Virus record (IMG/VR): IMGVR_UViG_3300042534_000372
Location: 1 to 56,714 of that record
DNA length: 56,714 nucleotides
Direction: 5' to 3' (one strand)
DNA from: a virus
Taxonomy: Duplodnaviria > Caudoviricetes
Position 1 is the stretch's first letter. Each line of letters begins with the position of its first letter. Position numbers and translations under genes: made by a program. The notes beneath the pieces are model-generated. The model was not told where the DNA came from. It saw only the letters and a program-made list of their open reading frames with translations, and did not search any database. Shown here piece after piece: positions 12,479 through 56,714 of the stretch.

Positions 12479-12549
12479 TGATCTAACGGGAGTCGAACCC
12501 TATCTTTCAGCTTTTCTGGCTGCGTGCTCTCCGTTACACTATTAGATCA
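12479..12549 (-). tRNA. Degenerate tRNA-like element (possible GAA/Phe anticodon)
   Basis: TGATCTAA/TTAGATCA acceptor stem, GTG/CAC D stem, CAGC/GCTG stem, GGGTTCGACTCCC T arm; non-canonical positions. Confidence 0.45.
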
Positions 12550-17336: not shown

Positions 17337-17735
17337 TTACACACTTCCCAAATCTCGTGATTTCTTAAATGCTTTGAACGACTCCTTAATGTCTTCTGTT
17401 GTTGGTAGCTCATATTCTATCGGTTTATTTTTTGGTGTAAAATGTAACTTCTGAAATGCAGTTAAAGGTTTTGCGTGATTGTGTAATGGTCTTTGATCCC
17501 AATCAGACATATCGGTATGGTTCCGGTTGCGTTCTCTTATTACGTGATCTAATCCGAACTTTTTAATCTTATTCCTTTCGACTGCGTTGAGGTATGCCTT
17601 TAATCTTCTTTCTAGATCTAATCTATATGGCAATGCTTCCGGCTTTCGCTCTTCTTCTCTTTCGATCTCAGGAGACTCTTGCACCCCCTGTTCTCTCATA
17701 TATAAAAAATCTTCTCTATTGCTTTGCATTGTCAA
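17337..17735 (-). CDS. Hypothetical protein
   Basis: ORF track. Confidence 0.6.
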   Translation of the reverse strand: MTMQSNREDFLYMREQGVQESPEIEREEERKPEALPYRLDLERRLKAYLNAVERNKIKKFGLDHVIRERNRNHTDMSDWDQRPLHNHAKPLTAFQKLHFTPKNKPIEYELPTTEDIKESFKAFKKSRDLGSV

Positions 17736-18381
17736 GCTCCTTAGTAATAAGTTCTTTATTCTTTTTACTCCACTTATATTTAAGTAGCGATTCGATAACG
17801 TATTGTTTTTTTGTGGGAATAGCCTTGATCATAGCGGTAACCTGTTCTTCCGAAACCCAATCCAACGAATCGCCAAATCCAAATTTGTAATCTTTAGGTG
17901 CTTGCGGTGTTTTAATATCGTCAGAATGAGTACTATCTGCGTCATCAATCTTGCCTACTGGAGTAAGGAAAGTATAAAGTAAACAGTTTTTAAGTGCATA
18001 TGTTGTAGCCTTACCAGCTCCTTTGTCTTGCGGGTCAATTCCGTGACCATAGCCAGCAAGCTCTATACTTTCCCCGCTTTCGTGTAGTAATATGTATTTA
18101 GTCTTAACCTTTGTGAAAACCGACTGTTTTGTTTTAAAATCTTTTGGTGTAGATTTACTGTATGGATCAACCTCTTCCCATCGATCTATTTGTGTTTCTT
18201 CTTCGATTCCAATAGGCAGAATGCAAAGTCCATTCTGTTCTAATGCATCGTTAAACACATCCGCAACATCCTTGTATTTAGTTCCGTCATAAGCCGAATT
18301 ACCAGTTCCGACACGGCTGTTTTTTTCCATTCCTTTAACAATCTTCATTACTGAAATAATTGCTTTTGCTATATTTTTCAT
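17716..18381 (-). CDS. erf: ERF-family ssDNA annealing protein
   Basis: LLHESGES, DKGAGKATTYALK, DDAD motifs. Confidence 0.85.
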   Translation of the reverse strand: MKNIAKAIISVMKIVKGMEKNSRVGTGNSAYDGTKYKDVADVFNDALEQNGLCILPIGIEEETQIDRWEEVDPYSKSTPKDFKTKQSVFTKVKTKYILLHESGESIELAGYGHGIDPQDKGAGKATTYALKNCLLYTFLTPVGKIDDADSTHSDDIKTPQAPKDYKFGFGDSLDWVSEEQVTAMIKAIPTKKQYVIESLLKYKWSKKNKELITKELDNAKQ

Positions 18382-19213: not shown

Positions 19214-19468
19214 TCAGTTTATTTTAATATTCTTTAAATCTAATTCAACTAATTCAAGTTTTAATTCCATACCACATATATTAGCGTATGAATTCAATAA
19301 TTTAAAATCAATAGTTTTGCCATTAATAAATTCGTTAATCTTCCTCCTTGATACATGGAAGTAGTCTGCTAAATCTTGTTGTGTAACACAATCGTAACAC
19401 CGTCTGTTTAATTCGTCCAAAATGTAACGATATTTGCACTCTAAAATTTCTGTTTTGGTTGTTTTCAT
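19214..19468 (-). CDS. XRE-like HTH protein immediately after the array A terminus
   Basis: TQQDLADYFHVSRRKINEFING. Confidence 0.8.
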   Translation of the reverse strand: MKTTKTEILECKYRYILDELNRRCYDCVTQQDLADYFHVSRRKINEFINGKTIDFKLLNSYANICGMELKLELVELDLKNIKIN

Positions 19469-19502
19469 TGGGTTTTATTTAAAAGGTGCGTTTACCGAAT
19501 CA

Positions 19503-19766
19503 TTACCATCCATACTCAGGAAAGTATTGCTTTACTAATTTAGAGTTACCAATATTAGGGTTATACCAAATAAGCTTTTGCCTTTCATTCATACTTTCTT
19601 TTATACAATGTGGGTGTGCAGTCCATATAAAAATATACGCTCCACCTTCTTCTAATATAGCATTTACTGCCATCGTTTGGTCTTTCCAACCTTCTCTGTT
19701 CTGGAATTTTATGCGTTTATTTTTATCAAGTTGCCCTAATATTTCTGCTAGTTGTTGTATTTTCAT
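19503..19766 (-). CDS. Cassette hypothetical protein
   Basis: Its TAA stop is the core of the terminal site. Confidence 0.7.
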   Translation of the reverse strand: MKIQQLAEILGQLDKNKRIKFQNREGWKDQTMAVNAILEEGGAYIFIWTAHPHCIKESMNERQKLIWYNPNIGNSKLVKQYFPEYGW

Positions 19767-19861
19767 TCTATTAAGTTTTTAGTTTGTACGTATGGTAATA
19801 TTAAATAAATTTCATTTCGTACCTCAACAAATCTTATTCCTGCTCATTATAAAGCAGTTTG

Positions 19862-20164
19862 TTAATATACACAACCGCATTTTCTGCACTTAAAAACAAC
19901 GCCAGTGCTTCCATATTGGACTTCCTCGTAAGCATGATCACAAACCGCCGCTTCGCTCTTTATAATATCAGGTAAATTTAATGCTTCACCAGTTTTATTT
20001 TCAGCCCCACTCGCTTGCTGTAATTTTAGTTTTTGGTTCTCTTTTTTAAGCTCCCTAACTTGGTCATCTAATTTATCAATACACTCACTAACATCAAACA
20101 TGTCTTCTGGTGCTTCAAGTCCTGCTAACTTACAATTATCTATTACTCTTTGCCAATCGCTCAT
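19862..20164 (-). CDS. Cassette protein crossing a hairpin arm, C-terminal Zn-ribbon
   Basis: LNLPDIIKSEAAVCDH...CRKCGC. Confidence 0.75.
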   Translation of the reverse strand: MSDWQRVIDNCKLAGLEAPEDMFDVSECIDKLDDQVRELKKENQKLKLQQASGAENKTGEALNLPDIIKSEAAVCDHAYEEVQYGSTGVVFKCRKCGCVY

Positions 20165-20248
20165 TACTTAGTTTTTAAGGTTATTTACTATTAATTTAGC
20201 TCATAGTATTCACGCACTAAACTTACCATTATCATTACCTGCAATATT

Positions 20249-20437
20249 TTATTTTTTGCCACCGCACTTACAATTTTTCAAATTGTTTAGGAATTGTCTT
20301 AGTGGCTCTTCCCAATGCTCAGCAAGTTTTTGAGAACCATTCACTGCCTTTACAAGTGTTGTATCAGGCATTTTCAATTGTCGCTCTATACCTCTAAGGC
20401 TTAGCGAGTGTTTATTTTTTCTTAACCAGTTAATCAT
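20249..20437 (-). CDS. Small HTH protein (paralog of 48980 and 53945)
   Basis: WLRKNK..LRGIERQLKMPDTTLVKAVN. Confidence 0.75.
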   Translation of the reverse strand: MINWLRKNKHSLSLRGIERQLKMPDTTLVKAVNGSQKLAEHWEEPLRQFLNNLKNCKCGGKK

Positions 20438-20441
20438 ACTA

Positions 20442-20603
20442 TTACCAAGATTGAATCATCATTAAACAGTCGTTTCTAGCATCTCTTGCATCAACATATA
20501 ATTGTTTGTTTTCTGCGGTTTTATTGCTCATGAAAACTTTAAGTGCTTTTTTAGTTTCAATACGGTGTTGTTGAAAATCGTTTCTTAATTCTTGAAGTGT
20601 CAT
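20442..20603 (-). CDS. Cassette hypothetical protein with own promoter
   Basis: ATG at 20603; TATATTTG element near 20632-20639. Confidence 0.6.
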   Translation of the reverse strand: MTLQELRNDFQQHRIETKKALKVFMSNKTAENKQLYVDARDARNDCLMMIQSW

Positions 20604-20806
20604 AGTATTAGTTTTTTCGTTAAACAATACCCAAATATAAGGGTAATATATTTAATATCCTAATATAAAGGTAAAATAAAAAAATCCATCCCTAAAAAAT
20701 AAAACAAAGCAGGTAACACTAAATAAAATTCATTTCGTTCCTCAACGAAATCTTATTCTTGTCCATTATGGAATCATAACGCTCACTCGTGCCTCGTTCC
20801 CTCAAA

Positions 20807-20986
20807 CTAACTACATTCAAAAATTTCACAATCGTCGAAATCTATAAATCCTATGTGGTCACCTGGTAAATTAACCTCATATTTACTAGAGTGGGGATCG
20901 CCATCATTAATTGGAGTAAAGATTTCTCCTATTCGATCATTGTACCACCAATTATCATTACTGCATTTTGTTATTTTAACTTTCAT
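20807..20986 (-). CDS. Cassette hypothetical protein (MKVKITKCSNDNWWYNDRIGE...)
   Basis: 59-aa ORF read manually. Confidence 0.65.
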   Translation of the reverse strand: MKVKITKCSNDNWWYNDRIGEIFTPINDGDPHSSKYEVNLPGDHIGFIDFDDCEIFECS

Positions 20987-21276
20987 ATCAAATAAATTTT
21001 TAAATTCCCGTTAGTATTATGATCTTCAATGTTGTTTGGCTTTCAACACACGAAAATCTTGACAATGTGAGCGTAACGCTCCTCAATAAACAGTTAAACT
21101 TCATTCAGCCTCTATATTGATCGTTCCTCACAATGAGGCTTTACGAAGCTTAGCCAAACAACATTATGGAATCATTAAAACGAAAAGCTAACATGCAATA
21201 AAAAACATGCTTACTTTTCGTTCTCGTATCAGCTTTAGTGGGTTATCGGGCAATTTTAAATAAAAGCCCACGCACA

Positions 21277-21513
21277 CTATAATAGCATCTTTTCCATCTC
21301 ATTTCTAAACGCCTGAGCATTTGGTTGCCCATACTTATTCATTGCAATTACAGCCTTTTCTTCCTCTTCAAATCCGAGTTTTATTTGTGCTGTAATGCCA
21401 TCTAAATCAGTCCTAATTGCAACTTCATACTTATCATCTTCATCGTTGTATTCAATTGTCAATAAAACTTGTTCGTCATTCTCAATTTCGATTAATCTTG
21501 CAAATTTTGCCAT
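21277..21513 (-). CDS. Hypothetical protein wholly inside a hairpin loop
   Basis: Lies between arms 21564-21593 and 21186-21210. Confidence 0.75.
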   Translation of the reverse strand: MAKFARLIEIENDEQVLLTIEYNDEDDKYEVAIRTDLDGITAQIKLGFEEEEKAVIAMNKYGQPNAQAFRNEMEKMLL

Positions 21514-21598
21514 CGCTTTTTTATTTAAAATTAGTACTCGTATTTAGTTTTGTGCGTTATTTCGCACGTTTCTTATTGCTGTCCATTACAAACAACCT

Positions 21599-21913
21599 CT
21601 AGCCACTAATGCCGCTCAGTTTGTCTGTCATTTCTTTTTGCATTTTGTCCTTCAGTACATTTTTGAAAGTTTCGGCTGTGCATCCGTACATCGGGCAGGT
21701 TTTTAGCTTAGCTGTATCAATCATACATTTACCTCTACTAAAAAAGTCACTACTTTGGTCGTCTGGGTCTGCTATAACCCTGCCCTTGCAAGCTAAATCA
21801 TTCAAGGTGCAAATGCAAAAAGAGGTAGCATCTCCACTTAAATGGTATTCGTAGTTCTCGTTTGTCAGTGCGGGGCAAGTCGCTCCCTTTTGTGGTGTAA
21901 TTAAAGTTTTCAT
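21599..21913 (-). CDS. Cys-rich cassette protein
   Basis: ORF track. Confidence 0.7.
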   Translation of the reverse strand: MKTLITPQKGATCPALTNENYEYHLSGDATSFCICTLNDLACKGRVIADPDDQSSDFFSRGKCMIDTAKLKTCPMYGCTAETFKNVLKDKMQKEMTDKLSGISG

Positions 21914-22062
21914 ATTCTATTTATCTTTTAGTTTATATTTAAAAATCGGCAGTTTGTAACACTAAATATATGTAAGCTTCGTTCCTCAGCCTCCACATAT
22001 TCATCACATTAGGTGCAATTTAATATTTAATAATTGCCACCGCACTATTAGTTTTTTCAAAA

Positions 22063-22944
22063 CTATTTATGTCTGTTCATCCAATCTTGCACGTACCACA
22101 ATTGCCCACAACCTCCACCAATATCATCCTGTCCAACAGGGTCGAAAACTCTAACATTATATCCACACTCTAAAAAACTAGCTGAAATTTCGTTAATTCT
22201 GTCAAGTTCTTTATATCCTTTATCTTTCATGTTTTCATCAGCAGAGCAAATAACACTGAATGTTAGGTTGAAAACAGCAGGGCTAAACAGGTCTTTTAGG
22301 CGGTTCATTTCATCATCGCTTTGGTTGTGCTCTCCAATGCAGTAATTAATGTAAACAGGTCGCTTGGTTAGCTTATTCCACTCAATGCCAGTATCACGCA
22401 TCTCACGCAATGTAAGCTTGTTTTTAAATGGTATTAAAGCATCTCTTTTTATTTCGATTGCCTCGTGTACACTAAATTGCAATCCTACCTTGTCAATGTC
22501 GTTACTTACTTCAAATAATCTTTCAAATGCTTTGGGTTTTTTAGCTGCCATTGTACTAAGTAACAGTTCTGCATTTGGGTAAAGGTTATTTAAGTCTCTA
22601 ATTGCTTTTTCTACATTTTCAAAATTAAGCATCGGCTCACCCATACTCATAAACATTATTTGGAAGCGTTCACCAACAGCATTAATGTTTTCAATATTCA
22701 TGTCTCTTAAGCAATGTTTTACTTGGTCAACTATTTCACGACTCGTAAGGTTTCTAATAAACATCTTACCAGTTCCGCAAAACTTACAACCCACAGGACA
22801 TCCGCTTTGTACACTTACACACAATACTGTTCGTTTGTAAAAATCCTCGTATCTGTAAAGCACAGCTTCTGCAACTGCATTTTCAAAATCAAATACATAC
22901 TTCCAAACATTGTTATCTGAACTATCAAATCTTTTCGTTTCCAT
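22063..22944 (-). CDS. RlmN/Cfr-like radical SAM protein lacking the N-terminal domain
   Basis: CVSVQSGCPVGCKFC (CxxxCxxC), MSMGEP, DIGGGCGQL. Confidence 0.9.
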   Translation of the reverse strand: METKRFDSSDNNVWKYVFDFENAVAEAVLYRYEDFYKRTVLCVSVQSGCPVGCKFCGTGKMFIRNLTSREIVDQVKHCLRDMNIENINAVGERFQIMFMSMGEPMLNFENVEKAIRDLNNLYPNAELLLSTMAAKKPKAFERLFEVSNDIDKVGLQFSVHEAIEIKRDALIPFKNKLTLREMRDTGIEWNKLTKRPVYINYCIGEHNQSDDEMNRLKDLFSPAVFNLTFSVICSADENMKDKGYKELDRINEISASFLECGYNVRVFDPVGQDDIGGGCGQLWYVQDWMNRHK

Positions 22945-23042
22945 AATTTAAAAAATAAAATTTGCCTACGCTTCGCTTTTTAATTAGCTATATTAATATT
23001 GTTTTGTTCTAAATTGTCACCACTCACCTAACATTCGATCCA

Positions 23043-23393
23043 TTAGCGGTCATTATAATCATGTATAAATTCGCTAAAATCTGGTGTAGGGTTACTTACT
23101 AAATGCCCTGCCATTGTTATTTTTGATTGTTTACTATAATGTTCACATGAACGCTCATAGATTGCACCCGCTTTAAATGATTCTCTCATATCTAATTCAG
23201 AGAAACGACCGCTAACAAGCGGTATATTGCAGTTGCTATCGCTTTTTTCAACACCGTTCGCTTGCTTCGTCTGTTCTTCAAGGTAAGCTAATCTTTTTAA
23301 CCTTCGTAAAACATCTTCCTCAAACATTGTATGTCCGTTTTCAATAAATTTCTTTTGCTCGTATCCAGTTACTTTCTTGTATTCGTATTTCAT
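23043..23393 (-). CDS. Cassette protein crossing a hairpin arm
   Basis: CNIPLVSGRF...NDR*. Confidence 0.75.
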   Translation of the reverse strand: MKYEYKKVTGYEQKKFIENGHTMFEEDVLRRLKRLAYLEEQTKQANGVEKSDSNCNIPLVSGRFSELDMRESFKAGAIYERSCEHYSKQSKITMAGHLVSNPTPDFSEFIHDYNDR

Positions 23394-23791
23394 AATCGCT
23401 CACTATTTAAGTTATTCAACATTTATTCATTTAATCAAAGTCGGTGGGTATTTGAACGGCAACCGACAACATACCGCAAGCCGATTATAAACAAATAAAA
23501 TTATCTACGTTTATTTCTCTTTTTCCGCTTTAATTTATTTTTTAAACATATAGCATTGTGTTTGCTTGTATTTCTTCCTGTAGTTATTTCTGTACCAAAC
23601 ACCTTAAAGCTTTCTATTAAATCATATTGTAAGCTTGAATGCTCGTTTCCTATTGGGTTCATAATTTTCTCAATTTATAATATAAATGTAAAAATCATAT
23701 TTAAGTACACTTATATAGTTGATTAATAATATTTTATATTTTGGTCACCTTATCAGTGAGGTGACCAAATACGATTCTTACATTCGATCCA

Positions 23792-24001
23792 TTATAAATC
23801 AACAATCTCAATACCTTTCCCTATTAATTTCAAAAACTTCTCAATCCATAATAACTTGTTTTGCAAAGCTGTTAACTTTTGTGGAACATCACAAGGCTCA
23901 CAATCTAATACTACCGATTGATCTACACGCTTCGGATATTCTGCTTTTAATTTATCGTAAATCTTTTGAACGGGTTCTATGTATCCTTTAGGCTTCCTCA
24001 T
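23792..24001 (-). CDS. Hypothetical protein
   Basis: ORF track. Confidence 0.5.
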   Translation of the reverse strand: MRKPKGYIEPVQKIYDKLKAEYPKRVDQSVVLDCEPCDVPQKLTALQNKLLWIEKFLKLIGKGIEIVDL

Positions 24002-24179: not shown

Positions 24180-24214
24180 GATATTCGGTTTATGGGGCAG
24201 AAGCCCCTGATTGA

Positions 24215-24469
24215 TTATTTATTTTTATAAAAATCATCTTTCGCTTTTTCGGCATCATTAAGTGTAGAGTGAAAAATTTGAACTAGATTATTAAAGTTAC
24301 CATCTTTTCTATTTGGCTTATGCATATTCCCAAATTCACAATCGCTTACTATTTTTAACTGCTTTAATCCGCAACTCTTTACAATTTCTTTAGTAATATT
24401 TATTATTTCACCTTTATGTAATTCAATTTTAAAAATCTGTTGTCCTTTTGAAAATCTTGGTTTGGTCAT
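24215..24469 (-). CDS. Hypothetical protein
   Basis: ORF with upstream promoter-like TTACTTTG. Confidence 0.6.
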   Translation of the reverse strand: MTKPRFSKGQQIFKIELHKGEIINITKEIVKSCGLKQLKIVSDCEFGNMHKPNRKDGNFNNLVQIFHSTLNDAEKAKDDFYKNK

Positions 24470-46032: not shown

Positions 46033-46034
46033 AA

Positions 46035-46724: not shown

Positions 46725-46839
46725 AGATTTTATCTATTAGAATTTATATTCCAAAGATACAAAAATAATGTGTTGTATAACATGTTTAGTGTTACTGATT
46801 AATTACCCGATAGATTTGGTGTTAATCAATTTTTTTGGG

Positions 46840-46847
46840 TATATTTG
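46840..46847 (+). promoter_or_regulatory. TATATTTG -7 element driving array B
   Basis: About 9 bp upstream of the first TAAT core. Confidence 0.65.
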
Positions 46848-46907
46848 TGTATTATTAATGGACAAGGCTAAGGGTAGTTTTTAAACCGATTAATAAAATA
46901 AAACAAA

Positions 46908-47165
46908 ATGAGTGAAATTAATAGATTAGAGATATTGGCGAATAGTTGTATAAAACACAACTGCTCCTTTTCAGGATTTGAGAGTAATGCGATAATTGAA
47001 GCCATGTTAGAATACCACAAAAGCGAGGTTGAAAAATTACCTTTAGCTAGTATTAACAACCGAAGGGAACTGTTAATTGCTGTATTCAAACAGGTGAAAG
47101 GTGTTACAATACCCGAAACAGATGAACAGATAGAATACCTCGTTGATAAATACAGCAATTTATAG
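46908..47165 (+). CDS. Cassette protein crossing a hairpin arm
   Basis: KLPLASINNRRELLIA...NL*. Confidence 0.75.
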   Translation: MSEINRLEILANSCIKHNCSFSGFESNAIIEAMLEYHKSEVEKLPLASINNRRELLIAVFKQVKGVTIPETDEQIEYLVDKYSNL

Positions 47166-47269
47166 TTGTTAATGAATAGGTGTAAGAATAGTGCGTGATT
47201 GAATACAGATAAATATTAATTAAATACAAACCGCCCGAACCGAATGTGCGAGGGCAAAAACCAAACAAA

Positions 47270-47428
47270 ATGAAATATACTTACTTGATAATGTTTTTAC
47301 TTGCACTAGTTGCTTGGATCTATTGCGCAGTTAATTTAGAGCTAATTGAAATGTGGATTTCACTAGCCTTTATATGGATTGGTGTATTAGGAATGCGAGC
47401 GGAGGGGAATGGTGATAATAGATATTAG
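47270..47428 (+). CDS. Small two-TM protein inside a hairpin loop
   Basis: MKYTYLIMFLLALVAW... Confidence 0.65.
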   Translation: MKYTYLIMFLLALVAWIYCAVNLELIEMWISLAFIWIGVLGMRAEGNGDNRY

Positions 47429-47583
47429 CATTATTTTTACATAGTATTATAATACTGCGCCAAAGCCTTTGTTTCAATTTTGAGTATAACGATACTTTGG
47501 CGTGGTTTATAATGATAATAATAAGAACCGTGCGATATTTAGCACAATTTTAATACGAGTTACTAATTAAAAATAAAAAAGCG

Positions 47584-47877
47584 ATGGAAAAGAATTGTAA
47601 TAATTGCGAAAAGGTAAATGGTTGCACAATGAAAGCTTACTGCAAGGGGCACAGACTTAATTATTGCAGATTTTACGAAGTGGAAGCAAAGCCTGTGATA
47701 GAAGAAAATGAATTTAAAACCAAGTTAAAAAACTTTGAAGACGCGGCAAGACCTTTAATTAAATGGCTTTGCGAAAACGAGCACCCAATGGTAACTGCAA
47801 TAATAACGACAACATCATGTGAGCTTTTAGAGGGCAAGTGTTGTAACCATAAAATATATGATTACGTTAAAGATTAG
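47584..47877 (+). CDS. Hypothetical protein inside a hairpin loop
   Basis: FEDAARPLIKWLCENEHP motif. Confidence 0.75.
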   Translation: MEKNCNNCEKVNGCTMKAYCKGHRLNYCRFYEVEAKPVIEENEFKTKLKNFEDAARPLIKWLCENEHPMVTAIITTTSCELLEGKCCNHKIYDYVKD

Positions 47878-48076
47878 TGCGTAGGGTTTTATTTTTAACA
47901 ACTTAAAAACGAGAACCAGACTTAAGCATGGTTTTTATTTAATATTATAATACTTCGCCAAAGCCTTACTTGAATTTTGAGTATAACGATACTTTGGCGT
48001 GGTTTATAATGAGCAGGGCTTAGTTGCGTTTAAACTAAATTTGATACGATAACACAAACTAACAAGACAAAGAGCG

Positions 48077-48382
48077 ATGGAAGAAACATTAAAAAAATAC
48101 GGAATAAGTAAGCAATTGTTTTTAAAGGTTACTGAGTTTATAAAACTACAAGTTGACTTAGGTATGATTAATACCCTTACTGACCAAGAGCAAATAGCAG
48201 CAGAAATATTAATAATGGCGAGCGAGGGGATTAAGCTGAAAACGAGTAATGATAAATGCAATTTAGCTAGTATTAACAATAGCGAAGCGATGGGTTGCGA
48301 GCACAAAAATTATTCATATACATTAAATAACGATACAAAACTATGTGATGATTGTGGGTGTATATTTGAGCGAGAAAACTGA
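48077..48382 (+). CDS. Cassette protein crossing a hairpin arm, C-terminal Zn-ribbon
   Basis: CNLASINNSEAMGCEH...CDDCGC. Confidence 0.75.
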   Translation: MEETLKKYGISKQLFLKVTEFIKLQVDLGMINTLTDQEQIAAEILIMASEGIKLKTSNDKCNLASINNSEAMGCEHKNYSYTLNNDTKLCDDCGCIFEREN

Positions 48383-48432
48383 TTGTTAATGAATGGTGGT
48401 ATGGTTAGATTTTTAACGACTTAAAAGAACGA

Positions 48433-48696
48433 ATGATGATAGTATTAACAGACCAAGATTTAGAAGAAATAGTTGCAACTGCACACATGGCAGGACAGCA
48501 AAAAGCAGGGGTTAAAACACCAACTTATTATGATGCACACCTTTATTATGCGAGGCAAGTTAAAAAATTAACTATACCACGTGTTAGCAAACGAAGTGAA
48601 CTGTTAATTGGCTTGCTTGAAATGCTCGAAAAAGAAGGTGGTAATGATTTTATAGATAAAGCTGAAATAGTAGCAAAATATGAAGCCAATTTATAG
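48433..48696 (+). CDS. Cassette protein crossing a hairpin arm
   Basis: KKLTIPRVSKRSELLIG...NL*. Confidence 0.75.
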   Translation: MMIVLTDQDLEEIVATAHMAGQQKAGVKTPTYYDAHLYYARQVKKLTIPRVSKRSELLIGLLEMLEKEGGNDFIDKAEIVAKYEANL

Positions 48697-48744
48697 TTGC
48701 TAATGAATGGCTAAAGTTACTTTTAAACTTAAACATCTGATACA

Positions 48745-48975
48745 ATGGCAGAAGAGAAAATAGAAATTTCAGAAAGTGAAAGATTTATGCAGGTCTACTT
48801 TAAGGAATTGCAAAAAGTGAAAGAGAGATTTCGCGTTAAAGATTCTGAATTTATAGGAATATCAGAATCAAAAGCGAGCAGAATTCTAAATGGAAAACAA
48901 ATAGATATTGAAGCTATGCTTGAGATGGCTCCCATGTCTGGATATACTTTTGAATTTAAATTAATAGAAAGATAA
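48745..48975 (+). CDS. XRE-like HTH protein after the array B terminus
   Basis: ISESKASRILNGKQIDI; resembles 19214-19468. Confidence 0.7.
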   Translation: MAEEKIEISESERFMQVYFKELQKVKERFRVKDSEFIGISESKASRILNGKQIDIEAMLEMAPMSGYTFEFKLIER

Positions 48976-48979
48976 TAAC

Positions 48980-49156
48980 ATGAGCGAATCAATTAAATGG
49001 TTACAGAAAAATAAACGCTTTATAAAGATTAGCGTAATTGAAATTGAGCTTGGAATGGCAGATACTATCTTAAGTAAGGCCGTGAATGAAAAACAGGCAT
49101 TATCTAAACATTGGGATAAGCCTTTGAATGAGTTTTTAACAGAATTAAAGAAATAG
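48980..49156 (+). CDS. Small HTH protein (paralog of 20249 and 53945)
   Basis: MSESIKWLQKNKRFIKISVIEIELGMADTILSKAVNE, read manually. Confidence 0.7.
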   Translation: MSESIKWLQKNKRFIKISVIEIELGMADTILSKAVNEKQALSKHWDKPLNEFLTELKK

Positions 49157-49305
49157 GAAATGGAAGAATTTATCATTTATGCTATAAGTATTATTCTTGC
49201 ATTTACAATGGGTAGATACGTAAAGAGTACGCCATTTAAAATAATACTAATGGTTATACTAATCTGTGTCGCTTCAGTAATAAAAAATACAATATAAATA
49301 AACCA

Positions 49306-49926
49306 ATGAAAAAAGAATTCAAATTACCTAAAGGAGTTGATATTGATCAAATAAATATTGACGTAAAAGGAAACTTATTAACAGTTATCTACAAGGAAGA
49401 AAGCAAACCAATTATTAAAGCTGGTGAGTGGTGGTATCACAGCACCGGAACATTGAATTTAATACTTGAAGTTAATCAGGATAGTCGAATAGCAAAGTGT
49501 ATGCCTATTTATGGCGATGGGATAAATGCATCATTCCACGGATTTGAAACAATGACTCGTAAGGCCGACATGAAAGAAGTTAAAAGTCTTTTGATGGATG
49601 AGGCTGTGAAGAAAGGGTATGATTATGGAACAATTGTTTATGGATTCGTAAATATTGGACAAACTTCTAAACTTAATGATGCTCCTTTTTATTTCGATAA
49701 CGGCGGAATGTATTTAGGTAATGTTTGTATATTTAATTATCACAGTGGCAAATGGGCTGAGATCATCGAAGAGAAGAAAGATTTTTACAGGGTAGTTAAA
49801 TGCAGCCTGAAGGTATTAAAGGTTATATGCGATGGATTGCCTGAAACAGATACTTTATCTAAGGTGATGACCAAACAGAAATGTTACAAATACATATATG
49901 ATAATTGGGATAAACTAAATAAATAA
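49306..49926 (+). CDS. Hypothetical phage protein
   Basis: GKWAEII and RKAD..EV..LL..EA.KKGY motifs. Confidence 0.75.
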   Translation: MKKEFKLPKGVDIDQINIDVKGNLLTVIYKEESKPIIKAGEWWYHSTGTLNLILEVNQDSRIAKCMPIYGDGINASFHGFETMTRKADMKEVKSLLMDEAVKKGYDYGTIVYGFVNIGQTSKLNDAPFYFDNGGMYLGNVCIFNYHSGKWAEIIEEKKDFYRVVKCSLKVLKVICDGLPETDTLSKVMTKQKCYKYIYDNWDKLNK

Positions 49927-49928
49927 AA

Positions 49929-49960
49929 CAAAACCCTCTTTAATCGGAGGGTTTTTTCTT
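49929..49960. terminator. Intrinsic terminator
   Basis: AAAACCCTC...GAGGGTTTTTT. Confidence 0.8.
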
Positions 49961-50339
49961 TTCAACTGTTCGGTATTTCCGGATAGTTGGATTTTGATAG
50001 ATTACTAACTGTTCAGTATTAAATCAATAGTCGCTAACATTAAACATCCATCTAAAATAGTCAGAAAAACAGCCATGTTATTAATTTTACGTATTGAATT
50101 ATTATTTCTTGCTAGCCATATGTAAATTAATGTAATCATGTTTATTATTTTTAGTTATTGTTTATTTCAAACTCATCAATTCATAAATAAAAAATATAGC
50201 CCACAGCACAAATAATGTCACAAACATTTTGATGTAAATAATATTCTCAGTCCAAACTCCAAGTATTAAAGATGATGAGAATACAAGGATGCATAAATAT
50301 TGTATTAGTCTAATCTTTTTCATAGTCTTTATTTTTAAT

Positions 50340-50591
50340 CTAACTCAACTCACAACTAGTAAGTGCATATTTCATTTTATGAATTAAATCTTGTTTTTTC
50401 AATCCATCCTTACAATGATTATTAATCAACTGCATTAACTCAGTATAAAAATCAGGTTTAATTGTGCTTTTATTTTCACTGAGTTTTGACTCTAACCATT
50501 CAATGTATTTTTGACTACTCGTTTCAAATAATAATTCAACACCTTTAAATTTAGATCTCTTTTCTTGTTCGAATTGTTCTCTGTGATTCAT
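50340..50591 (-). CDS. Hypothetical protein
   Basis: YIEWLE motif; ORF track. Confidence 0.6.
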   Translation of the reverse strand: MNHREQFEQEKRSKFKGVELLFETSSQKYIEWLESKLSENKSTIKPDFYTELMQLINNHCKDGLKKQDLIHKMKYALTSCELS

Positions 50592-50951
50592 GTTTATTAT
50601 TTTTAGTTTAATTATTTGTATTCAATGTCCTCTATGTGATATATCATTAAAAGAGATTTAAAGATAATACACACTCGATATAATTACATTGATCTAATCA
50701 TATCAGGCAAAGTTAATACCGGCTATGTTCCGGCTGTTGTACTCTCTAAGCTTACGCTATCACATTGAGAACGGAGTTAAGATTGTGGCTCATTGCTCCG
50801 GATATTTTAACAATTAACTCTATACCATGCCTTTTAACTTATTCGATTTATAGAACATTATTAAACAGGTCTTATCTTTTGTTTTTAGTCTGGCTTAAAT
50901 CTTTACAGGCACTTAAAGAGAATTGATAACTTTAAGCGAATAGAAGGCAAG

Positions 50952-51075
50952 AAAAAATCCTGTTGGCAGACCGTTCAAAACGGGTGAAACATGCCAAACA
51001 GGACTAATATAGATTGAAATAATAATGTCTTTTCTGTAATAGATGTTTCACCTTCTATTCAATAAGACAAAGTTA
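50952..51075 (-). promoter_or_regulatory. Promoter plus putative attenuator/leader RNA
   Basis: TAACTTTG element; GGTGAAACAT/ATGTTTCACC pairing overlaps a CCTGTTTGGCA...TGCCAACAGG terminator. Confidence 0.5.
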
Positions 51076-51219
51076 ATCATTATTAATGTGTTTTACAACA
51101 TGTTTAAAGATGTTCTATATTAAAATAATTCTGTGTAGGTTTGTTGTACCGAAAAAATCGATCAAACATTACGAGTATATTCTCCCCTACCAAAAGGAGG
51201 CTCATGATCGGATAATAAG

Positions 51220-51249
51220 AAAAGCCAGGTCTTCGGATTTGGCTTTTTT
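51220..51249. terminator. Intrinsic terminator
   Basis: AAAAGCCAGGTC-TTCG-GATTTGGCTTTTTT. Confidence 0.75.
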
Positions 51250-51312
51250 ATTTGCTATTGTAATATATAAGGTGTATATTTGTGTAGTATTAATTAAAAC
51301 TAAAACAATAAC

Positions 51313-51459
51313 ATGAGAAAACTAATAGACATTGAAGGAGAATTAGACAAAGAAGGTTCTTTAGTCAATAAGCTTAATGTAATGGCTGCGAAGAAAGGTA
51401 AGTATTTAAAAAACTACATCGAGGATGTTTTGAAAGATCATGTTGATAAAAGTAAGTAG
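51313..51459 (+). CDS. Ribbon-helix-helix-like regulator heading array C
   Basis: MRKLIDI...KLNVMAAKKGKYLKNYIEDVL; TATATTTG at 51275-51282. Confidence 0.6.
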   Translation: MRKLIDIEGELDKEGSLVNKLNVMAAKKGKYLKNYIEDVLKDHVDKSK

Positions 51460-51526
51460 TTGTTAACGGATTACGGCTATGAAGCGTTGCCGATTAAAAC
51501 GCTATAACTTTCAAATTTAAACTAAG

Positions 51527-51679
51527 ATGAGTAAAGAGAACAAAAATTCGGATAAGCAACAAAACGGCAATGATTTTATAGCCGATGTTACCAAACGTTA
51601 TTACTTAACCAAGGATAGACAGGGAAATTACCAAATATTAAATGAGTTGGCTTATGAAAAGAAGTTGATTTACGGATAA
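51527..51679 (+). CDS. Cassette peptide (MSKENKNSDKQQNGNDFIADVTKR...)
   Basis: 50-aa ORF starting in a loop, read manually. Confidence 0.55.
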   Translation: MSKENKNSDKQQNGNDFIADVTKRYYLTKDRQGNYQILNELAYEKKLIYG

Positions 51680-51766
51680 TGTTTGGTAATGAGCATTGGT
51701 AAGTTTTGAACCGATAATAACCGATTAATTTCGATACGAGTAGTAATGTAAATTAAAATTTTTATC

Positions 51767-52108
51767 ATGAATATAGAACAGGCAATAATAGATATTAAAC
51801 ACTTTAGTCAAACCCATATAGATTGGGCGGAGTATTTTGAAAAAAACCCAAACATTGAGAGTGAGTATTTAAAAACTGGCAAATGGAGTTCCGCAATAGA
51901 ACATCGCGAAATAGTTTCAAAATACGATAATGTTTTAAAAATTTTAGAACATGCAAAGACTGAAACGAGTAATAAAGATGAGGTTTTAAATTTACCTGAT
52001 GTTATAAAATCGTGCGACAACTGCAAATTTGTTAAAGAGTGTAGACATAAAGGATTAGCTGATAATGAAAAAAGAATATGCAAATTTTATGTTGAGCATG
52101 TTTTATAA
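51767..52108 (+). CDS. Cassette protein crossing a hairpin arm
   Basis: LNLPDVIKSCDNC; stop is the TAA core of the next site. Confidence 0.75.
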   Translation: MNIEQAIIDIKHFSQTHIDWAEYFEKNPNIESEYLKTGKWSSAIEHREIVSKYDNVLKILEHAKTETSNKDEVLNLPDVIKSCDNCKFVKECRHKGLADNEKRICKFYVEHVL

Positions 52109-52167
52109 CGTTGAATGTAAGGTGCGTTGCTGTACCAATGTTAAACAAAGAATAAAACTTAAATATT

Positions 52168-52401
52168 ATGAGCAAAAATAACAAAAAAGATACTGAGCAA
52201 TGCACTTTACATAGTGTTATAGAGAGTGCCTTGCCATGCCCTTTTTGTGGTGGTACTAACTTAGCTTTTATTAGTGATGCTGATGGAGATAGAGACGTTG
52301 AATTTATAGTTTGCATGGCTGATAACTGCCTTGCAGATGGTAGAATAGGTAAAAATAAAGAGGATGCTTTAAATAAGTGGAACAAAAGGCATTCTCTATA
52401 A
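52168..52401 (+). CDS. Lar-like (restriction alleviation) Zn-finger cassette protein
   Basis: LPCPFCGG...C...C...A..KWNKR. Confidence 0.7.
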   Translation: MSKNNKKDTEQCTLHSVIESALPCPFCGGTNLAFISDADGDRDVEFIVCMADNCLADGRIGKNKEDALNKWNKRHSL

Positions 52402-52447
52402 CGTTTATGGTATGGATAGTAAATTAACGATTAAATAAAACTGAATT

Positions 52448-52759
52448 ATGAAATTAGCAATAGAGATATTAAACAGAGAGATAGCACAGCGAAAGTTAGC
52501 AAACAAACACGAACATTTAAGAAAGGATGTGTGTACACAAGAATTGAAAGAGCTTGAAAGTGTAGTTAATTTATTAGCTATACCAATTGTTAGCGTTTCG
52601 TTGTTTGATACATTACAAGACTTAATAGAAGTGTACGAAGAAAGAGAAACCAAAGCAAGCAAGATGGGAAATTGGAGTGAGGCCTTCCAAAACGAAATAA
52701 GGGTAGGTGTATTACAGCATTTAGCACAATTGCATAAACATAAAAACAATGAACGCTAA
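52448..52759 (+). CDS. Cassette protein crossing a hairpin arm
   Basis: NLLAIPIVSVSL. Confidence 0.7.
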   Translation: MKLAIEILNREIAQRKLANKHEHLRKDVCTQELKELESVVNLLAIPIVSVSLFDTLQDLIEVYEERETKASKMGNWSEAFQNEIRVGVLQHLAQLHKHKNNER

Positions 52760-52819
52760 CGGTCGCAGGTATGTTTAGTGCCTGATTTAGAAGTAAAAAC
52801 AATCAAAATATAAATAACG

Positions 52820-53035
52820 ATGAAAAAAGAACAAAACTTGAATACAGCAAAACAACAGGCATTAAATATACCTGTTGTTAGCGGTCGTTTTTTTGAAGTG
52901 TTTGACAAAGAAAATGATTATAATTTAGCTGTTGATTTAAAAAACTATGTTAATGAGCATATATTTAAACACTTAGTTAATAATTATGATTTAAAAATAA
53001 CTTATCGTGAATGGTTGTCGCAAAATGACCGCTAA
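52820..53035 (+). CDS. Cassette protein crossing a hairpin arm
   Basis: QALNIPVVSGRF...NDR*. Confidence 0.7.
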   Translation: MKKEQNLNTAKQQALNIPVVSGRFFEVFDKENDYNLAVDLKNYVNEHIFKHLVNNYDLKITYREWLSQNDR

Positions 53036-53102
53036 TGAACAAGAATATGGGCTGATTGCCCTTGAAAATTAGTATAAATTTTAATTAAAAACAGATAAGA
53101 TT

Positions 53103-53429
53103 ATGAAACGTAGAAATTTAATTAGCAAAACGGCAATTTGCCTATATTTAGTGTTAGCAGTATGTTATTCTTCTTTTTCACAAGAGGCTGACACTGTTAA
53201 AATAGATACTACAGTTAATAAAATATGTTTGGAGCGTGGGCATGTATCTGTCGGGGTAATTATGAAAACAGCAATGTACTGCACCCCGTATAGTATAGAT
53301 ACTGACAGCACAACAGTAATGGTTTACCCCGCTTGCAATTACGAAAGTTTTACATGTAAAAGATGCGGTAAGTATGTTAGCCAATTAGAAAAGGAGCGGA
53401 GGGTTGTAATTTGGCGTAAAGAAGAATAA
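53103..53429 (+). CDS. Cassette protein with signal peptide and Zn-ribbon
   Basis: Hydrophobic signal region is encoded by the hairpin arm; CKRCG. Confidence 0.7.
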   Translation: MKRRNLISKTAICLYLVLAVCYSSFSQEADTVKIDTTVNKICLERGHVSVGVIMKTAMYCTPYSIDTDSTTVMVYPACNYESFTCKRCGKYVSQLEKERRVVIWRKEE

Positions 53430-53612
53430 TTACTGCTAATGAACAATTGCAAGATGGCGTTGAGGCACGAAATGCATTTTGCATAGCATTATAGGTTTTA
53501 ATAATTAAAATTTTGGGAGGGGTTTATTTTTCTTCATTTTTTTATCTTTATATTAGGATACTAAATATATTACCCGTATATTTGGATAAACAATAACACT
53601 AAAACATACGAC

Positions 53613-53939
53613 ATGAAAACTTTTATAAAATTAATAACATTAATAGTAGTATTATCATCATCAACACTAGCTAGCGCAAATCACGATAATCAGACAGAGA
53701 TAAATCATTCAAAATACGACACTATTGTTTGTGATTTCTTATCGTCGCAATCTCCCAATATTGTCATTAACCGTATTGATTTTAACTTTTTCTTATCAGC
53801 ACTAGAAAGAGTCGGGTTTAATTGCGCGATAGATTCGGATAGATATAATATGACCAGGGTAATTAATGGTGCAACTATAAAAATTCAATGGAGTGTTACT
53901 GGTTACAATACGACTTTTACTAAAATGGAAATTAAATAA
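53613..53939 (+). CDS. Secreted hypothetical cassette protein with own promoter
   Basis: Signal peptide; TATATTTG near 53577-53584. Confidence 0.7.
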   Translation: MKTFIKLITLIVVLSSSTLASANHDNQTEINHSKYDTIVCDFLSSQSPNIVINRIDFNFFLSALERVGFNCAIDSDRYNMTRVINGATIKIQWSVTGYNTTFTKMEIK

Positions 53940-53944
53940 ACAAC

Positions 53945-54124
53945 ATGTCAAAAAACTTAATGAATTGGATAAAGCAGAATAAACGCTTTGTTAAAATACG
54001 TGCTATTGAGCAAGAATTAAAGATGCCTGACAGTACATTGATAAAAGCTGTGAACGAAGTACAGAATTTACCTAAGAAGTGGATTAAACCGCTGAATGAA
54101 TTCCTAATTACTTTGAAAAAGTAA
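53945..54124 (+). CDS. Small HTH protein (paralog of 20249 and 48980)
   Basis: WIKQNKRFVKIRAIEQELKMPDSTLIKAVNE, read manually. Confidence 0.72.
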   Translation: MSKNLMNWIKQNKRFVKIRAIEQELKMPDSTLIKAVNEVQNLPKKWIKPLNEFLITLKK

Positions 54125-54292
54125 CAGTGCGTAGGCAATTTTAATTTTATTACCTATAATGAATGGCTAAAGTTACCTTTTAAACAAAACCCAATGAATA
54201 TGCACCGTTTAAATATTCAAGTGTGCATATTTCGTTACATTACAATTACACGTGAGTAATAATAGTTACACTAAAATTTAAAAATAAACAAA

Positions 54293-54484
54293 ATGAAACT
54301 AACAAAATTAGAAAAGGCATTAGTAGTATCAGGTTCTACTTCAATAATCGGAATAGTATGTACTGTGTTTGAATTACTCTCTATGCCATTCGGTTATGAA
54401 TTCAACTGGTATAGTGTTTGTATTTTAGGACTTGGAGTTATTGGAAGTGTGATATTTGGAAGGATTTACACAAATAAAAACTAA
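54293..54484 (+). CDS. Small two-TM protein
   Basis: Hydrophobic segments. Confidence 0.55.
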   Translation: MKLTKLEKALVVSGSTSIIGIVCTVFELLSMPFGYEFNWYSVCILGLGVIGSVIFGRIYTNKN

Positions 54485-54488
54485 AACT

Positions 54489-54974
54489 ATGAAAAAACTA
54501 ATAATTTTAACCGCATTGTTATTATTAACTATTTGTGTTAAGTCTCAGATAACTGATAATACATTTCAAGCGTTAGAAGTAACATTCAGTAACGAAGATA
54601 AAGCACCTGGCTTTAACGCTTATTTATTCAATAAAGGATTTGGATTAGTTGCCGGATTCGAGACTGGCAATTATCGATTTGGAGATACTGCTAAAACGGA
54701 ACACGATAAATACAGATTAGGATTAGCGATCAACGCAACCGAAAAAGATTCATATTATTGCGGTGGTAGCTTAATCTTTTACGCTACTGCATGTTATAAC
54801 GAATACAAGGAAGTTTACGATAAGTTCGATCATATAAACGATGATTTGCCTACGTACACATGTGAATTAGGCGTTAAGTTCTTGTTTCCGAACAGTAGGG
54901 TATTTTCAGGCTTTCAATACGATATTATTCATAAGACTGGCGGGTTTTCAGTTGGGTTAATTATAAATAAATAG
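54489..54974 (+). CDS. Putative outer-membrane beta-barrel protein
   Basis: Signal peptide MKKLIILTALLLLTICVKS-Q; amphipathic beta strands ending GGFSVGL. Confidence 0.65.
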   Translation: MKKLIILTALLLLTICVKSQITDNTFQALEVTFSNEDKAPGFNAYLFNKGFGLVAGFETGNYRFGDTAKTEHDKYRLGLAINATEKDSYYCGGSLIFYATACYNEYKEVYDKFDHINDDLPTYTCELGVKFLFPNSRVFSGFQYDIIHKTGGFSVGLIINK

Positions 54975-54976
54975 AT

Positions 54977-55399
54977 ATGGAAAAGATTGGGAATATAATA
55001 ATGTTATCGTGTATGCTAATATTAGCAGTAAGTATATCCTATGGTATATTCAAACTGTGTAGCGTTAAAGATAATGAATCGAAATATATCAATTCAGAAT
55101 TAGGTAGTAATGTTTGTGATGATGATTATGTAACGGTAATATATGACTGTTCGATATGTACCATTTCAAAAATAACTACAGATAAAGATACTGTTATAAG
55201 ATTAGATAATTTAAAAGAAGGAATGTCTGGATACATCAATATAAATACACAATCAGGATGCAAGTTGAGAGTGATAGTGTGCCCTGATGTAGTAAGCGAC
55301 ACAAGCAATATAAATCCTATCATTATTGATGGTTTCGGAGTTGTATCATGGTGTTGCATTAATAGTGTTTTATATAAAATATATGACAAATATGAATAG
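54977..55399 (+). CDS. Membrane-anchored paralog of the tail fibre C-terminal domain
   Basis: YDCS....SKIT....T...L.NL.EGMSG.I.I matches the fibre tip. Confidence 0.7.
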   Translation: MEKIGNIIMLSCMLILAVSISYGIFKLCSVKDNESKYINSELGSNVCDDDYVTVIYDCSICTISKITTDKDTVIRLDNLKEGMSGYININTQSGCKLRVIVCPDVVSDTSNINPIIIDGFGVVSWCCINSVLYKIYDKYE

Positions 55400-55604
55400 T
55401 GTTTTTGAGTTTGCATATACTGATTGTCATCATGATAGTGGCCCTGTGTGTGTTAGTATTCATAAAACAATAAAAGGCGCAGAGGTCGCGAGTCGTCTAC
55501 ATAAAGAAAACGAACGAAAGGAGTGTGAGGACGACGACATTAATTTTGATGAGTATTCCGAGTATGCATTATGGGTTATCACAGAAAGAGAAGTACTAGA
55601 ATAA
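55392..55604 (+). CDS. Hypothetical protein
   Basis: SIHKTIKGAEVA motif; likely start MNSVF. Confidence 0.6.
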   Translation: MNSVFEFAYTDCHHDSGPVCVSIHKTIKGAEVASRLHKENERKECEDDDINFDEYSEYALWVITEREVLE

Positions 55605-55608
55605 ATAG

Positions 55609-56055
55609 TCACAATCCAGTAACATTCTTCACATACATTAAGAATTTAAGATCATTAGCGTTTGTGAATGTTGTACGACTATCTTTATTGTGCCCCATGT
55701 AATCACCATACTTTTTAATCAATGAAGGTGCTTTGTTATTCGTATTGTAAAGCTCATACTTTAGATTTGATCCTCTTAGTTTAATCCCTGCGTAGTTTGC
55801 GCCTGTTAGGTTTAAATCTGGAACTCCTAAAGTTGGTCGTGAATTACGTTGATTCTTAAACCTAGCATATCTAGGATTACGATATTCAGGACTTATCGCT
55901 TTATCAGTTGGCATTTCACCATCTATCAATTGATTCTGATTTAGCTTTATAGCCAATGGTGCATTATCCATAACAATCTCGTCTAATATCCTCGGTAGGT
56001 TATTAGTAATGCTCTGTAATCTTGCGTAAAGCTCGTGTATTGTTATATCGCCCAT
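55609..56055 (-). CDS. Probable tail completion / virion morphogenesis protein
   Basis: LNQNQL..G, PDLNLTG, LIKKYG motifs; start MGDIT at 56055 with an upstream TATCTTTA element. Confidence 0.65.
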   Translation of the reverse strand: MGDITIHELYARLQSITNNLPRILDEIVMDNAPLAIKLNQNQLIDGEMPTDKAISPEYRNPRYARFKNQRNSRPTLGVPDLNLTGANYAGIKLRGSNLKYELYNTNNKAPSLIKKYGDYMGHNKDSRTTFTNANDLKFLMYVKNVTGL

Positions 56056-56225
56056 ACTATAAAGATAATAAAAATAAAAATCAACTAATAAATTAATAGG
56101 CTTACTTGTAATTAATACAAATAACACGTTTGTGTTAATTATTATTGCATTACTATTGGCTAGTGACACATTTGTGCTTATATTTGTAATAGACAATAAG
56201 GAAATAAACTTTAAAACTAAACAAG

Positions 56226-56465
56226 ATGAAAACTTCAACTTTAAAAAACAAATTAAACAAACTGAATATTGAATTTACAATTGATTCCAACTATCAAGTA
56301 ATTGATTTTACAATAAATAACAAAAGTTATTCAGGTAGTTTAAATAATGATGAAGATGAAGTTTTCGGTTTTTGCGCTATAACTGGTTATGATGATGCAA
56401 GCCAAGAAACAACTAGAAGATTCTTTGATAATTTTAATCAGGTTTTAAGACATTCAAATAAATAA
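56226..56465 (+). CDS. Hypothetical protein (allele of 390-629)
   Basis: ORF track. Confidence 0.8.
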   Translation: MKTSTLKNKLNKLNIEFTIDSNYQVIDFTINNKSYSGSLNNDEDEVFGFCAITGYDDASQETTRRFFDNFNQVLRHSNK

Positions 56466-56466
56466 A

Positions 56467-56634
56467 ATGGATATTAAATTTAAAGGTCAAAAGCTCTCAA
56501 CTTTAGAATGGGTTGAGAGTGATTCCATACTACAAGGCAGGCATTGCGAAACCAAAAGAATTTTCTTGAAAACAAAAGAAAAGTTCCCGCAGTGGACTGA
56601 ATGTAAACCAGAAACGGTTATTCAAATTAAATAA
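56467..56634 (+). CDS. Small YopX-like protein (allele of 631-798)
   Basis: Same translation as 631-798. Confidence 0.6.
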   Translation: MDIKFKGQKLSTLEWVESDSILQGRHCETKRIFLKTKEKFPQWTECKPETVIQIK

Positions 56635-56714
56635 TTAAAATCTATGTTATGAAAAAATGCGAAGATTGTGGATGTGAAATTTATTCTTACATCAATAAAG
56701 ATGGTGAATGCAAG

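Follow-up and report, generated by a model that had tools for sequence, protein, structure and literature searches.

Three arrays of small genes in the genome of a tailed phage each end in a similar short sequence. This arrangement raises the question of whether that sequence constitutes an empty platform, comparable to the attI site of integrons, at which new gene units would dock. A first-pass annotation of the window (the whole virus record, 56,714 bp) had proposed precisely such a platform, with entry at the transcriptional 3' end of each array. From the analysis described here, the 42-nt sequence looks like a composite rather than a dedicated integration platform, and the gene-swapping signal seems to sit in the whole family of intergenic spacers to which its left half belongs, with no special docking site.

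The genome, its three arrays and their spacer motif

The virus is a complete 56.7-kb siphovirus of the Cellulophaga-phage type (the record is rated complete by CheckV), coding for a tape-measure protein, a portal, a large and a small terminase, an ERF-family annealase and two DNA methylases. Its DNA matches named phages only in short mosaic pieces, held in common with Cellulophaga phages phi17:1, phi13:2 and phi19:3. Searches for relatives through a 229-aa protein and through the helix-turn-helix (HTH) protein described below found none, and in the nine loci related through the ERF gene DNA similarity is confined to that gene. Three runs of small co-oriented genes, arrays A, B and C, lie on the minus (A) and plus (B and C) strands.

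19505..23794 (stretch ~24.2-19.5 kb), minus strand: array A, 9 motif copies, cores at 23794, 23045, 22011, 21588, 21166, 20768, 20237, 19849 and 19505
46856..48728 (46.9-48.7 kb), plus strand: array B, 6 motif copies, cores at 46856, 47170, 47510, 48007, 48387 and 48701
51464..54198 (51.3-54.2 kb), plus strand: array C, 8 motif copies, cores at 51464, 51687, 52106, 52399, 52757, 53033, 53437 and 54157
17716..18381, minus strand: ERF-family single-strand annealing protein, candidate recombination function (PF04404, E 3.9e-7, 30.6 bits, cut-off 25)

Neither a tyrosine nor a serine recombinase (PF00589, PF00239) was matched across the 56.7-kb record, using profiles whose controls were positive in 14 of 14 and 13 of 14 genomes, respectively. 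As for possible readers of the motif, the sigma-factor profile PF08281 had no match in the genome; nor had the phage RNA polymerase profile PF00940, whose control likewise matched nowhere.

Several other features of the genome deserve mention. A tRNA-Phe (GAA) at 12478-12548 (-), upstream of the small terminase gene, is both the sole tRNA and the sole Rfam match. A 300-nt direct repeat, ~90% identical and spanning small genes, is found at both record ends (within 367-823 and 56203-56659) and may represent a diverged terminal redundancy or a duplicated module; the 39-nt stretches at 785-823 and 56621-56659 match the same inverted-repeat partner at the same 79% (I10/I12). Array A contains a radical-SAM gene (22063-22944, minus strand; Radical_SAM E 2.7e-6, below the Pfam cut-off), which is 78% identical in DNA over 869 nt to an uncultured 462-kb phage record and has short matches to Stenotrophomonas and Vibrio phage genes annotated as rRNA methyltransferase N or radical SAM.

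Spacers of arrays A, B and C alike open with TAAYG, with TAWG 6-9 nt later and often ...GTGCG. Genome-wide, TAAYG-N6-9-TAWG has 32 copies, of which 29 are sense to local transcription and 3 antisense; 20 copies fall within the 9.7 kb of the arrays, against 2.0 ± 1.3 (maximum 7) in 300 dinucleotide shuffles; as the pattern was derived from the same copies, the strand bias is the more independent figure. A regular expression and shuffles were used because an nhmmer profile of 21 motif copies, a model probably too short, returned no matches. In 7 of the 23 copies, the preceding gene terminates at the TAA of the core. A reading of the TAATG copies as mini-ORFs was rejected, since the TAACG variants have no start codon. 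The same motif is found in the small-gene arrays of phi17:1, phi13:2, phi19:3 and the Polaribacter phages P12002L and P12002S, and in IMG/VR loci located through a 59-aa gene family; it is absent from L003 and L004, the two that were read out of the nine ERF-gene relatives, where genes are tightly packed. The element, with its core (T/C)AAYG followed by ...TAWG...GTGCG, is thus to all appearances common to phages of marine Flavobacteriaceae. Its layout may resemble that of chromosome dimer-resolution (Xer) sites.

Make-up of the array-end sequence

The three end sequences are found where they had been described, and each is the final TAAYG-type motif copy of its own array.

54157..54198, plus strand: site C, a short-form spacer motif (54157-54176) joined to the start of a decayed HTH gene, leader plus ATG (54175-54198)
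54194..54259, plus strand: 5' remnant of the HTH gene, 21 codons, homologous to 19468-19410 (-) with a 2-nt indel
48701..48728, plus strand: site B, identical to C in its 20-mer and, past a gap of one base, continuing as TTTTAAAC; a different leader follows, with a gene at 48745
48745..48975, plus strand: distant HTH paralog, 76 aa (BLASTP E 2e-6, 26% over 42 aa against the A protein)
19464..19505, minus strand: site A, a short-form motif, its TAA serving as stop codon to gene 19503-19766, followed by an HTH gene's leader and ATG
19214..19468, minus strand: XRE-like HTH gene, 84 aa, directly downstream of site A (HTH_3 E 5.6e-4, 20.3 bits, below the 23-bit cut-off)

That these resemblances exceed chance is borne out, while the conservation claimed among the three ends holds only as a chain: B and C have their left 20-28 nt in common, A and C their right 24 nt. 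The left 20 nt occur exactly at 48701 and 54157 only, with 0.03 occurrences expected by chance. The 42-nt pair 54157/19505 is matched at 83% (inverted repeat I4), and its right part agrees at 24 of 24 positions, one of them a Y; allowing up to 3 mismatches, these 24 nt occur twice in the genome (0.00 expected, none in 100 shuffles). The A/C similarity runs ~45 nt further into coding sequence and is shared by A and C only, the local score past the 42 nt being 31, across a 2-nt indel, against 13.9 ± 2.3 in shuffles (0 of 1000 reach 31). Over the left 20 nt, A agrees with B/C at 14 of 20 positions, the best match that A has, but one that ranks only 15th among the 253 pairs formed by the 23 motif copies (mean 11.6 ± 1.8).

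Because the B/C and A/C relationships differ, the right half is best read as part of a regulator gene that is present more than once, covering its leader and 5' end, with the left half being separate. The left ~21 nt are, as judged from sequence, the last left-arm-only ("short-form") copy of an intergenic hairpin element in each array. The right ~21 nt seem to comprise the start codon of an XRE-like HTH gene and the A-rich leader before it; this gene appears intact after A, as a distant paralog after B (a 76-aa protein with no Pfam match below E 0.04) and decayed after C. As the similarity of sites A and C extends into the HTH ORF, it points to gene paralogy and not to a discrete site.

Given this make-up, the conserved block could be a regulatory site, i.e., the promoter, operator or translation leader of the XRE-like regulator (possibly serving autoregulation), lying at the array end only because the HTH gene opens a conserved replication/recombination module. 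Conservation of the right half is indeed limited to sites followed by the HTH gene or by what remains of it, the distance from core to ATG is 33-37 nt, the flanks have a weak dyad symmetry (GGT...ACC and GGC...ACC), and the genes next after A belong to a conserved module that includes ERF. However, B has a different leader and other samples carry a different gene after it, no gene follows the 20-mer in contig L027, and none of the three sites has a canonical match to TTTG-N-TAnnTTTG, which we take to be the bipartite, host-type promoter consensus of Bacteroidota. We consider this explanation unlikely. An antisense promoter had also been suggested from the reverse complement of sites B and C; the supposed box is only a near-match of a kind (TAnnTTTA) found 186 times in the genome, has no TTTG at a fitting distance upstream and is missing from the A copy, so that the suggestion is not upheld.

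The three copies could also be leftovers of segmental duplications of one early-gene module, devoid of any function of their own. Paralogous genes do recur in all three arrays: a family of 58-62-aa proteins with the WLxKNK motif (49-60% identical), an 85/87-aa pair (repeat D13) and the HTH pair. Against this, the 20-mer is identical although the surrounding genes are unrelated or only 26-60% identical, and it recurs in other samples with different neighbours, which makes plain duplication very improbable.

The contexts of the 20-mer bear on both explanations. Exact matches in metagenome contigs number three, two of which, at the start of an ABC-transporter gene, are due to chance. The remaining match lies in the unrelated contig L027, where an unrelated 87-aa gene precedes the 20-mer and no further motif comes after it. 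No HTH gene is found there either; some 290 nt of non-coding DNA, including a terminator-like hairpin, separate the 20-mer from a homolog of window gene 46035-46724. In runs X3 and X6, contigs retain 48701-48742 and then carry a different gene. The 20-mer is thus 100% identical in at least three contexts while other motif copies drift, which hints at some constraint on its sequence. A terminal variant shared across genera was sought and none was found: the terminal elements of P12002L, phi13:2 and phi19:3 align with the window site over TAAY and the A-rich leader and fail to align further. Searches of IMG/VR and of 185,579 species (one genome per species) found no match to the site pattern, which hence was not found beside host integrases, where the first-pass annotation had suggested looking for it.

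Hairpins and mosaic joints of the spacer family

In its long form, the element spans some 46-60 nt as an imperfect palindrome, closed by TAAYG...YGTTA and bearing loops such as TGAGGNACGA. Long forms and promoter-like elements of the window are as follows.

20714..20768, minus strand: long-form hairpin, loop TGAGGAACGA, then the conserved promoter element
19796..19849, minus strand: long-form hairpin
21957..22011, minus strand: long-form hairpin
53437..53491, plus strand: long-form hairpin, then the conserved promoter element
53537-53605 (plus strand) and 20611-20679 (minus strand): conserved promoter-like element of ~70-80 nt, ending TATATTTGG (inverted repeat I2, 81%)
46815..46847, plus strand: bipartite promoter match of the host type (TTTG-N-TAnnTTTG), heading array B; b0 starts 9 nt later
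51251..51282, plus strand: host-type bipartite promoter match at the head of array C

An alignment of 18 long-form copies (4 from the window and 14 from five other sources, including Polaribacter and Cellulophaga phages) has 16 consensus pairs. Paired cells amount to 90.7%, against 74.8 ± 1.7 in shuffles, and compensatory cells to 44, against 14.7 ± 3.0 (0 of 500 shuffles reach either value), and slid controls are 30-54% paired. Since 14 of the 18 hairpins were chosen by an energy filter that enforces the closing pairs, the pairing is inflated, while compensatory changes within the stem are unaffected. Two pairs are conserved as G.U (15 of 18 and 13 of 18 copies), and the longer window spacers fold more stably in sense than in antisense (-89 vs -64, -38 vs -23 and -33 vs -23 kcal/mol); both findings suggest that the transcript, or the top strand, is the form that matters.

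Most units have no right arm. Short spacers fold no better than shuffles (b4 0.16, b5 0.62, c2 0.06, c4 1.0, a2 2.1, a6 0.06, a7 -0.02), and when the 23 left arms were tested for a downstream duplex partner, only one exceeded z -2 (c6, z -2.7), the terminal copies scoring 0.15 (b5), -0.05 (c8) and -1.49 (a7). The unpaired left core seen at the array ends is therefore genuine without being distinctive, as a left arm alone is the normal state and no mark of an array end. For the same reason, a role of the hairpin in RNA cannot explain the conservation of the short form. The earlier statement that the arrays open with a full hairpin fails for B (b0 z -0.37, b1 z 0.87) and for C (c1 z -1.56); array A starts after an unrelated G+C hairpin (24180-24217, z -3.4).

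The combination of long form and conserved promoter element is found in 2 of the 23 copies; the remaining copies show neither. The promoter-like element (I2), which is of the host type and recurs in at least 5 IMG/VR loci, is 79-94% identical in L015 and L019-L023, where it precedes a small operon ending in the WLxKNK gene family. A sigma-70 scan did not rise above shuffles (64 vs 55.3 ± 7.4). Two further spacers stand out by themselves. The 293-nt spacer 20987-21279 (-), between genes 21277-21513 and 20807-20986, folds at -89.1 kcal/mol (z -6.8; antisense -64.2) and is a candidate structured non-coding RNA. A 95-nt spacer is present twice (47420-47515 and 47918-48012, 77-98% identical), both copies ending in a TAATGA core and carrying a hairpin, CGCCAAAG...CTTTGGCG, and a sigma-70-like match TTAGCA-N17-TATAAT.

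The part of the earlier interpretation that stands is the role of the left core, TAAYG, as a preferred mosaic joint. Breaks fall on it in the window, in P12002L/P12002S and in phi13:2/phi19:3, and in these three comparisons the joints of indels and replacements between close relatives coincide with intergenic cassettes. In four other samples, contigs compared with 46000-56714 contain pieces nearly identical to parts of array B. These break on the cores at 47170 (X3, X5) and 48387 (X2) and just after TAATGA at 47515 (X5), and pieces start at core 48007 in runs X3 and X6. Among 24 of 116 matches listed, 3 of 17 distinct loose-end places are on a core, where 1% would be expected (P ~7e-4; two adaptor-like matches were excluded). 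Off-core breaks occur at 48742, just before the start codon downstream of site B (X3, X6), at 48417, and inside genes at 47055, 47059, 48260, 48300, 49410, 49422, 49747, 49778 and 52833. Not all joint cores are stop codons, those of b1 and b4 lying 4 nt and that of b3 129 nt past the stop. Variation had been expected to be greatest near the terminal site; joints are instead found in every array B unit, and one also downstream of site B.

In P12002L and P12002S, which are 99% identical, 10 of 17 block ends coincide with a (T/C)AAYG core in sense orientation (offsets of -3 to +6 nt), with ~6% expected; the 17 ends were curated by hand, and 2 of the 10 core ends concern a single P12002S element. 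Of the other ends, 3 are at a leader or ATG, 2 inside genes, 1 at the 3' end of a long-form hairpin and 1 elsewhere. Automatic procedures gave lower counts: 2 of 16 on core by ungapped joint refinement, which was misled by indels, and 4 of 20 (P 0.02) by strict-scoring BLAST, in which 8 of the 20 ends were SNP splits. One indel of this pair is flanked by two motif copies that have 14 nt in common. Between phi13:2 and phi19:3, 3 of 6 array block ends are on core, and shared units come in a different order. Elsewhere in P12002L, a methyltransferase gene (L029 30078-30848) is 87-90% identical in DNA to genes of Cellulophaga phages phi12:1 and phi12:3 and of Flavobacterium phages. On one side the similarity stops at the start codon, on the other 15 nt from the stop codon; one gene by itself has thus passed between phages of three host genera.

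Routes of unit exchange

We give slightly better than even credence to a reading in which these elements behave like the PeSL cassettes of T4-type phages, as spacers with a role in the transcript whose [spacer + gene] units are exchanged at the conserved 5' core. First, the elements would be sense-strand spacers between small early genes, and the hairpin would act in the transcript as a terminator or as a processing or stability element. Second, the conserved 5' core would be the point at which units are exchanged between phages, through short-homology recombination for which the phage's own ERF annealase is a candidate. Finally, selection would retain joints at gene borders, against those that break genes.

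For the PeSL themselves, terminator and promoter activity as well as mini-circles have been shown, according to two reports (PMC2839356, PMC4122927). As described there, PeSL occupy hyperplastic regions, as short conserved cassettes in the gaps between small genes that are mostly uncharacterised, a setting that the present elements share, and insertions, deletions and replacements between close relatives are bounded by cassettes in both cases. Composites of stem-loop and promoter are also present in the window (20714-20768, 53437-53491), where their activity is predicted. Conversely, the sequences are unrelated, the phages here are siphoviruses and podoviruses of Flavobacteriaceae, the majority of the present copies consist of a left arm and have neither a stem-loop nor a promoter that can be recognised, and the joints here are on a 5-6-nt core. 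Tailed-phage genomes are also known for mosaic borders and "morons", i.e., units of a spacer and one gene that are joined at gene borders and pass from phage to phage even where the phages are otherwise unrelated. The units described here are alike in both respects, but a specific conserved core marks their joints, in contrast to random illegitimate joints filtered by selection. Several observations count against the PeSL-like reading: joints on a 5-6-nt core are tighter than homology-driven exchange usually gives, as would be expected of a site-specific enzyme; the arrays of phi13:2 and phi19:3 end beside a tyrosine recombinase gene; a predicted attC of P12002L was active with IntI1; the 20-mer is invariant across its contexts; and the short form is conserved although it mostly does not fold.

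The first three of these feed an integron-like alternative, in which the hairpins would be attC-type sites folded from single strands (AAC...GTT ends), cut at TAA|YG by a tyrosine recombinase supplied in trans by a co-infecting phage or the host, with the terminal left-arm copy as an attI-like dock at the 3' end. Joints are nucleotide-exact on the core, non-stop cores included, and likewise in P12002L/S, where one block of 61 nt, isolated and with a boundary on either side, amounts to a complete long-form hairpin common to both phages (10597-10657). The hairpins form a family with conserved outer repeats and covarying inner stems, the 20-mer of L027 is again the last motif before a module border, and the tyrosine recombinase gene of phi13:2 and phi19:3 stands at the array 3' end, past a conserved last motif. 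In addition, a CALIN has been reported in P12002L, a 2023 paper stating that two of its sites were scored as attC and that one of them, P12002L_attC2, recombined with attI1 by IntI1 in E. coli (PMC9892861). These sites and the P12002L elements of the present family may be the same sequences. Like the phage CALINs as described there, the arrays consist of co-oriented small genes with imperfect palindromes between them and outer repeats ending ...AAC or beginning GTT..., and the element family is present in CALIN-bearing P12002L itself.

The differences are nevertheless substantial. The window genome has no recombinase, and thus no IntI, no attI beside an integrase and no Pc layout, and for the Baltivirus enzyme the general domains Phage_int_SAM_5 and Phage_integrase are found, with nothing IntI-specific shown. 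The joint is at the 5' core TAAYG, whereas integrons use the 3' GTTRRRY box (as given in PMC9892861), which few right ends here fit; one joint does lie at a hairpin 3' end. Half-sites are the rule and no end state, so that cassettes need not end in an imperfect palindrome, and internal promoters exist. Some joints fall within genes or at start codons, variation extends to all units of array B, and the A-C similarity is accounted for by gene paralogy. The conserved G.U pairs favour the sense strand, whereas bottom strands were cloned and top strands recombined less in the experiments reported in PMC9892861. Half-sites throughout, no recombinase and the A/C paralogy leave the attI-like platform at the array 3' end without support, and we regard the integron-like explanation as quite unlikely, retaining it mainly for the tightness of the joints on the 5-6-nt core.

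The array ends of the Baltivirus phages phi13:2 and phi19:3 (L013 7810-8448, L014 5006-6262) consist of a motif (TAACAATG...), a 78-aa gene and the tyrosine recombinase. The units upstream of this conserved end differ between the two phages, and the 78-aa protein has no similarity to the HTH proteins of the window. A bolder proposal, of which we are just as doubtful, is that a separate cassette system is common to the phages of marine Flavobacteriaceae, with attC-like hairpins and half-sites cut at TAA|YG by a trans-acting enzyme (the Baltivirus array-end tyrosine recombinase or one of the host), the terminal half-site being a preferred dock.

The gain and loss of small early genes of lytic phages, which often serve in host takeover or anti-defence, are largely unexplained outside the T4 group. 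Here, one short core marks the joints of gene swaps in at least four genera of Cellulophaga and Polaribacter phages and their uncultured relatives. The cultured pairs P12002L/P12002S and phi13:2/phi19:3 are suited to a direct test of the mechanism. Whether homology of the PeSL-like kind or a site-specific enzyme is at work will decide whether integron-like gene capture operates in virulent marine phages. If the cassette system proposed above were real, strictly lytic phages devoid of an integrase could trade single genes by means of an enzyme supplied in trans.
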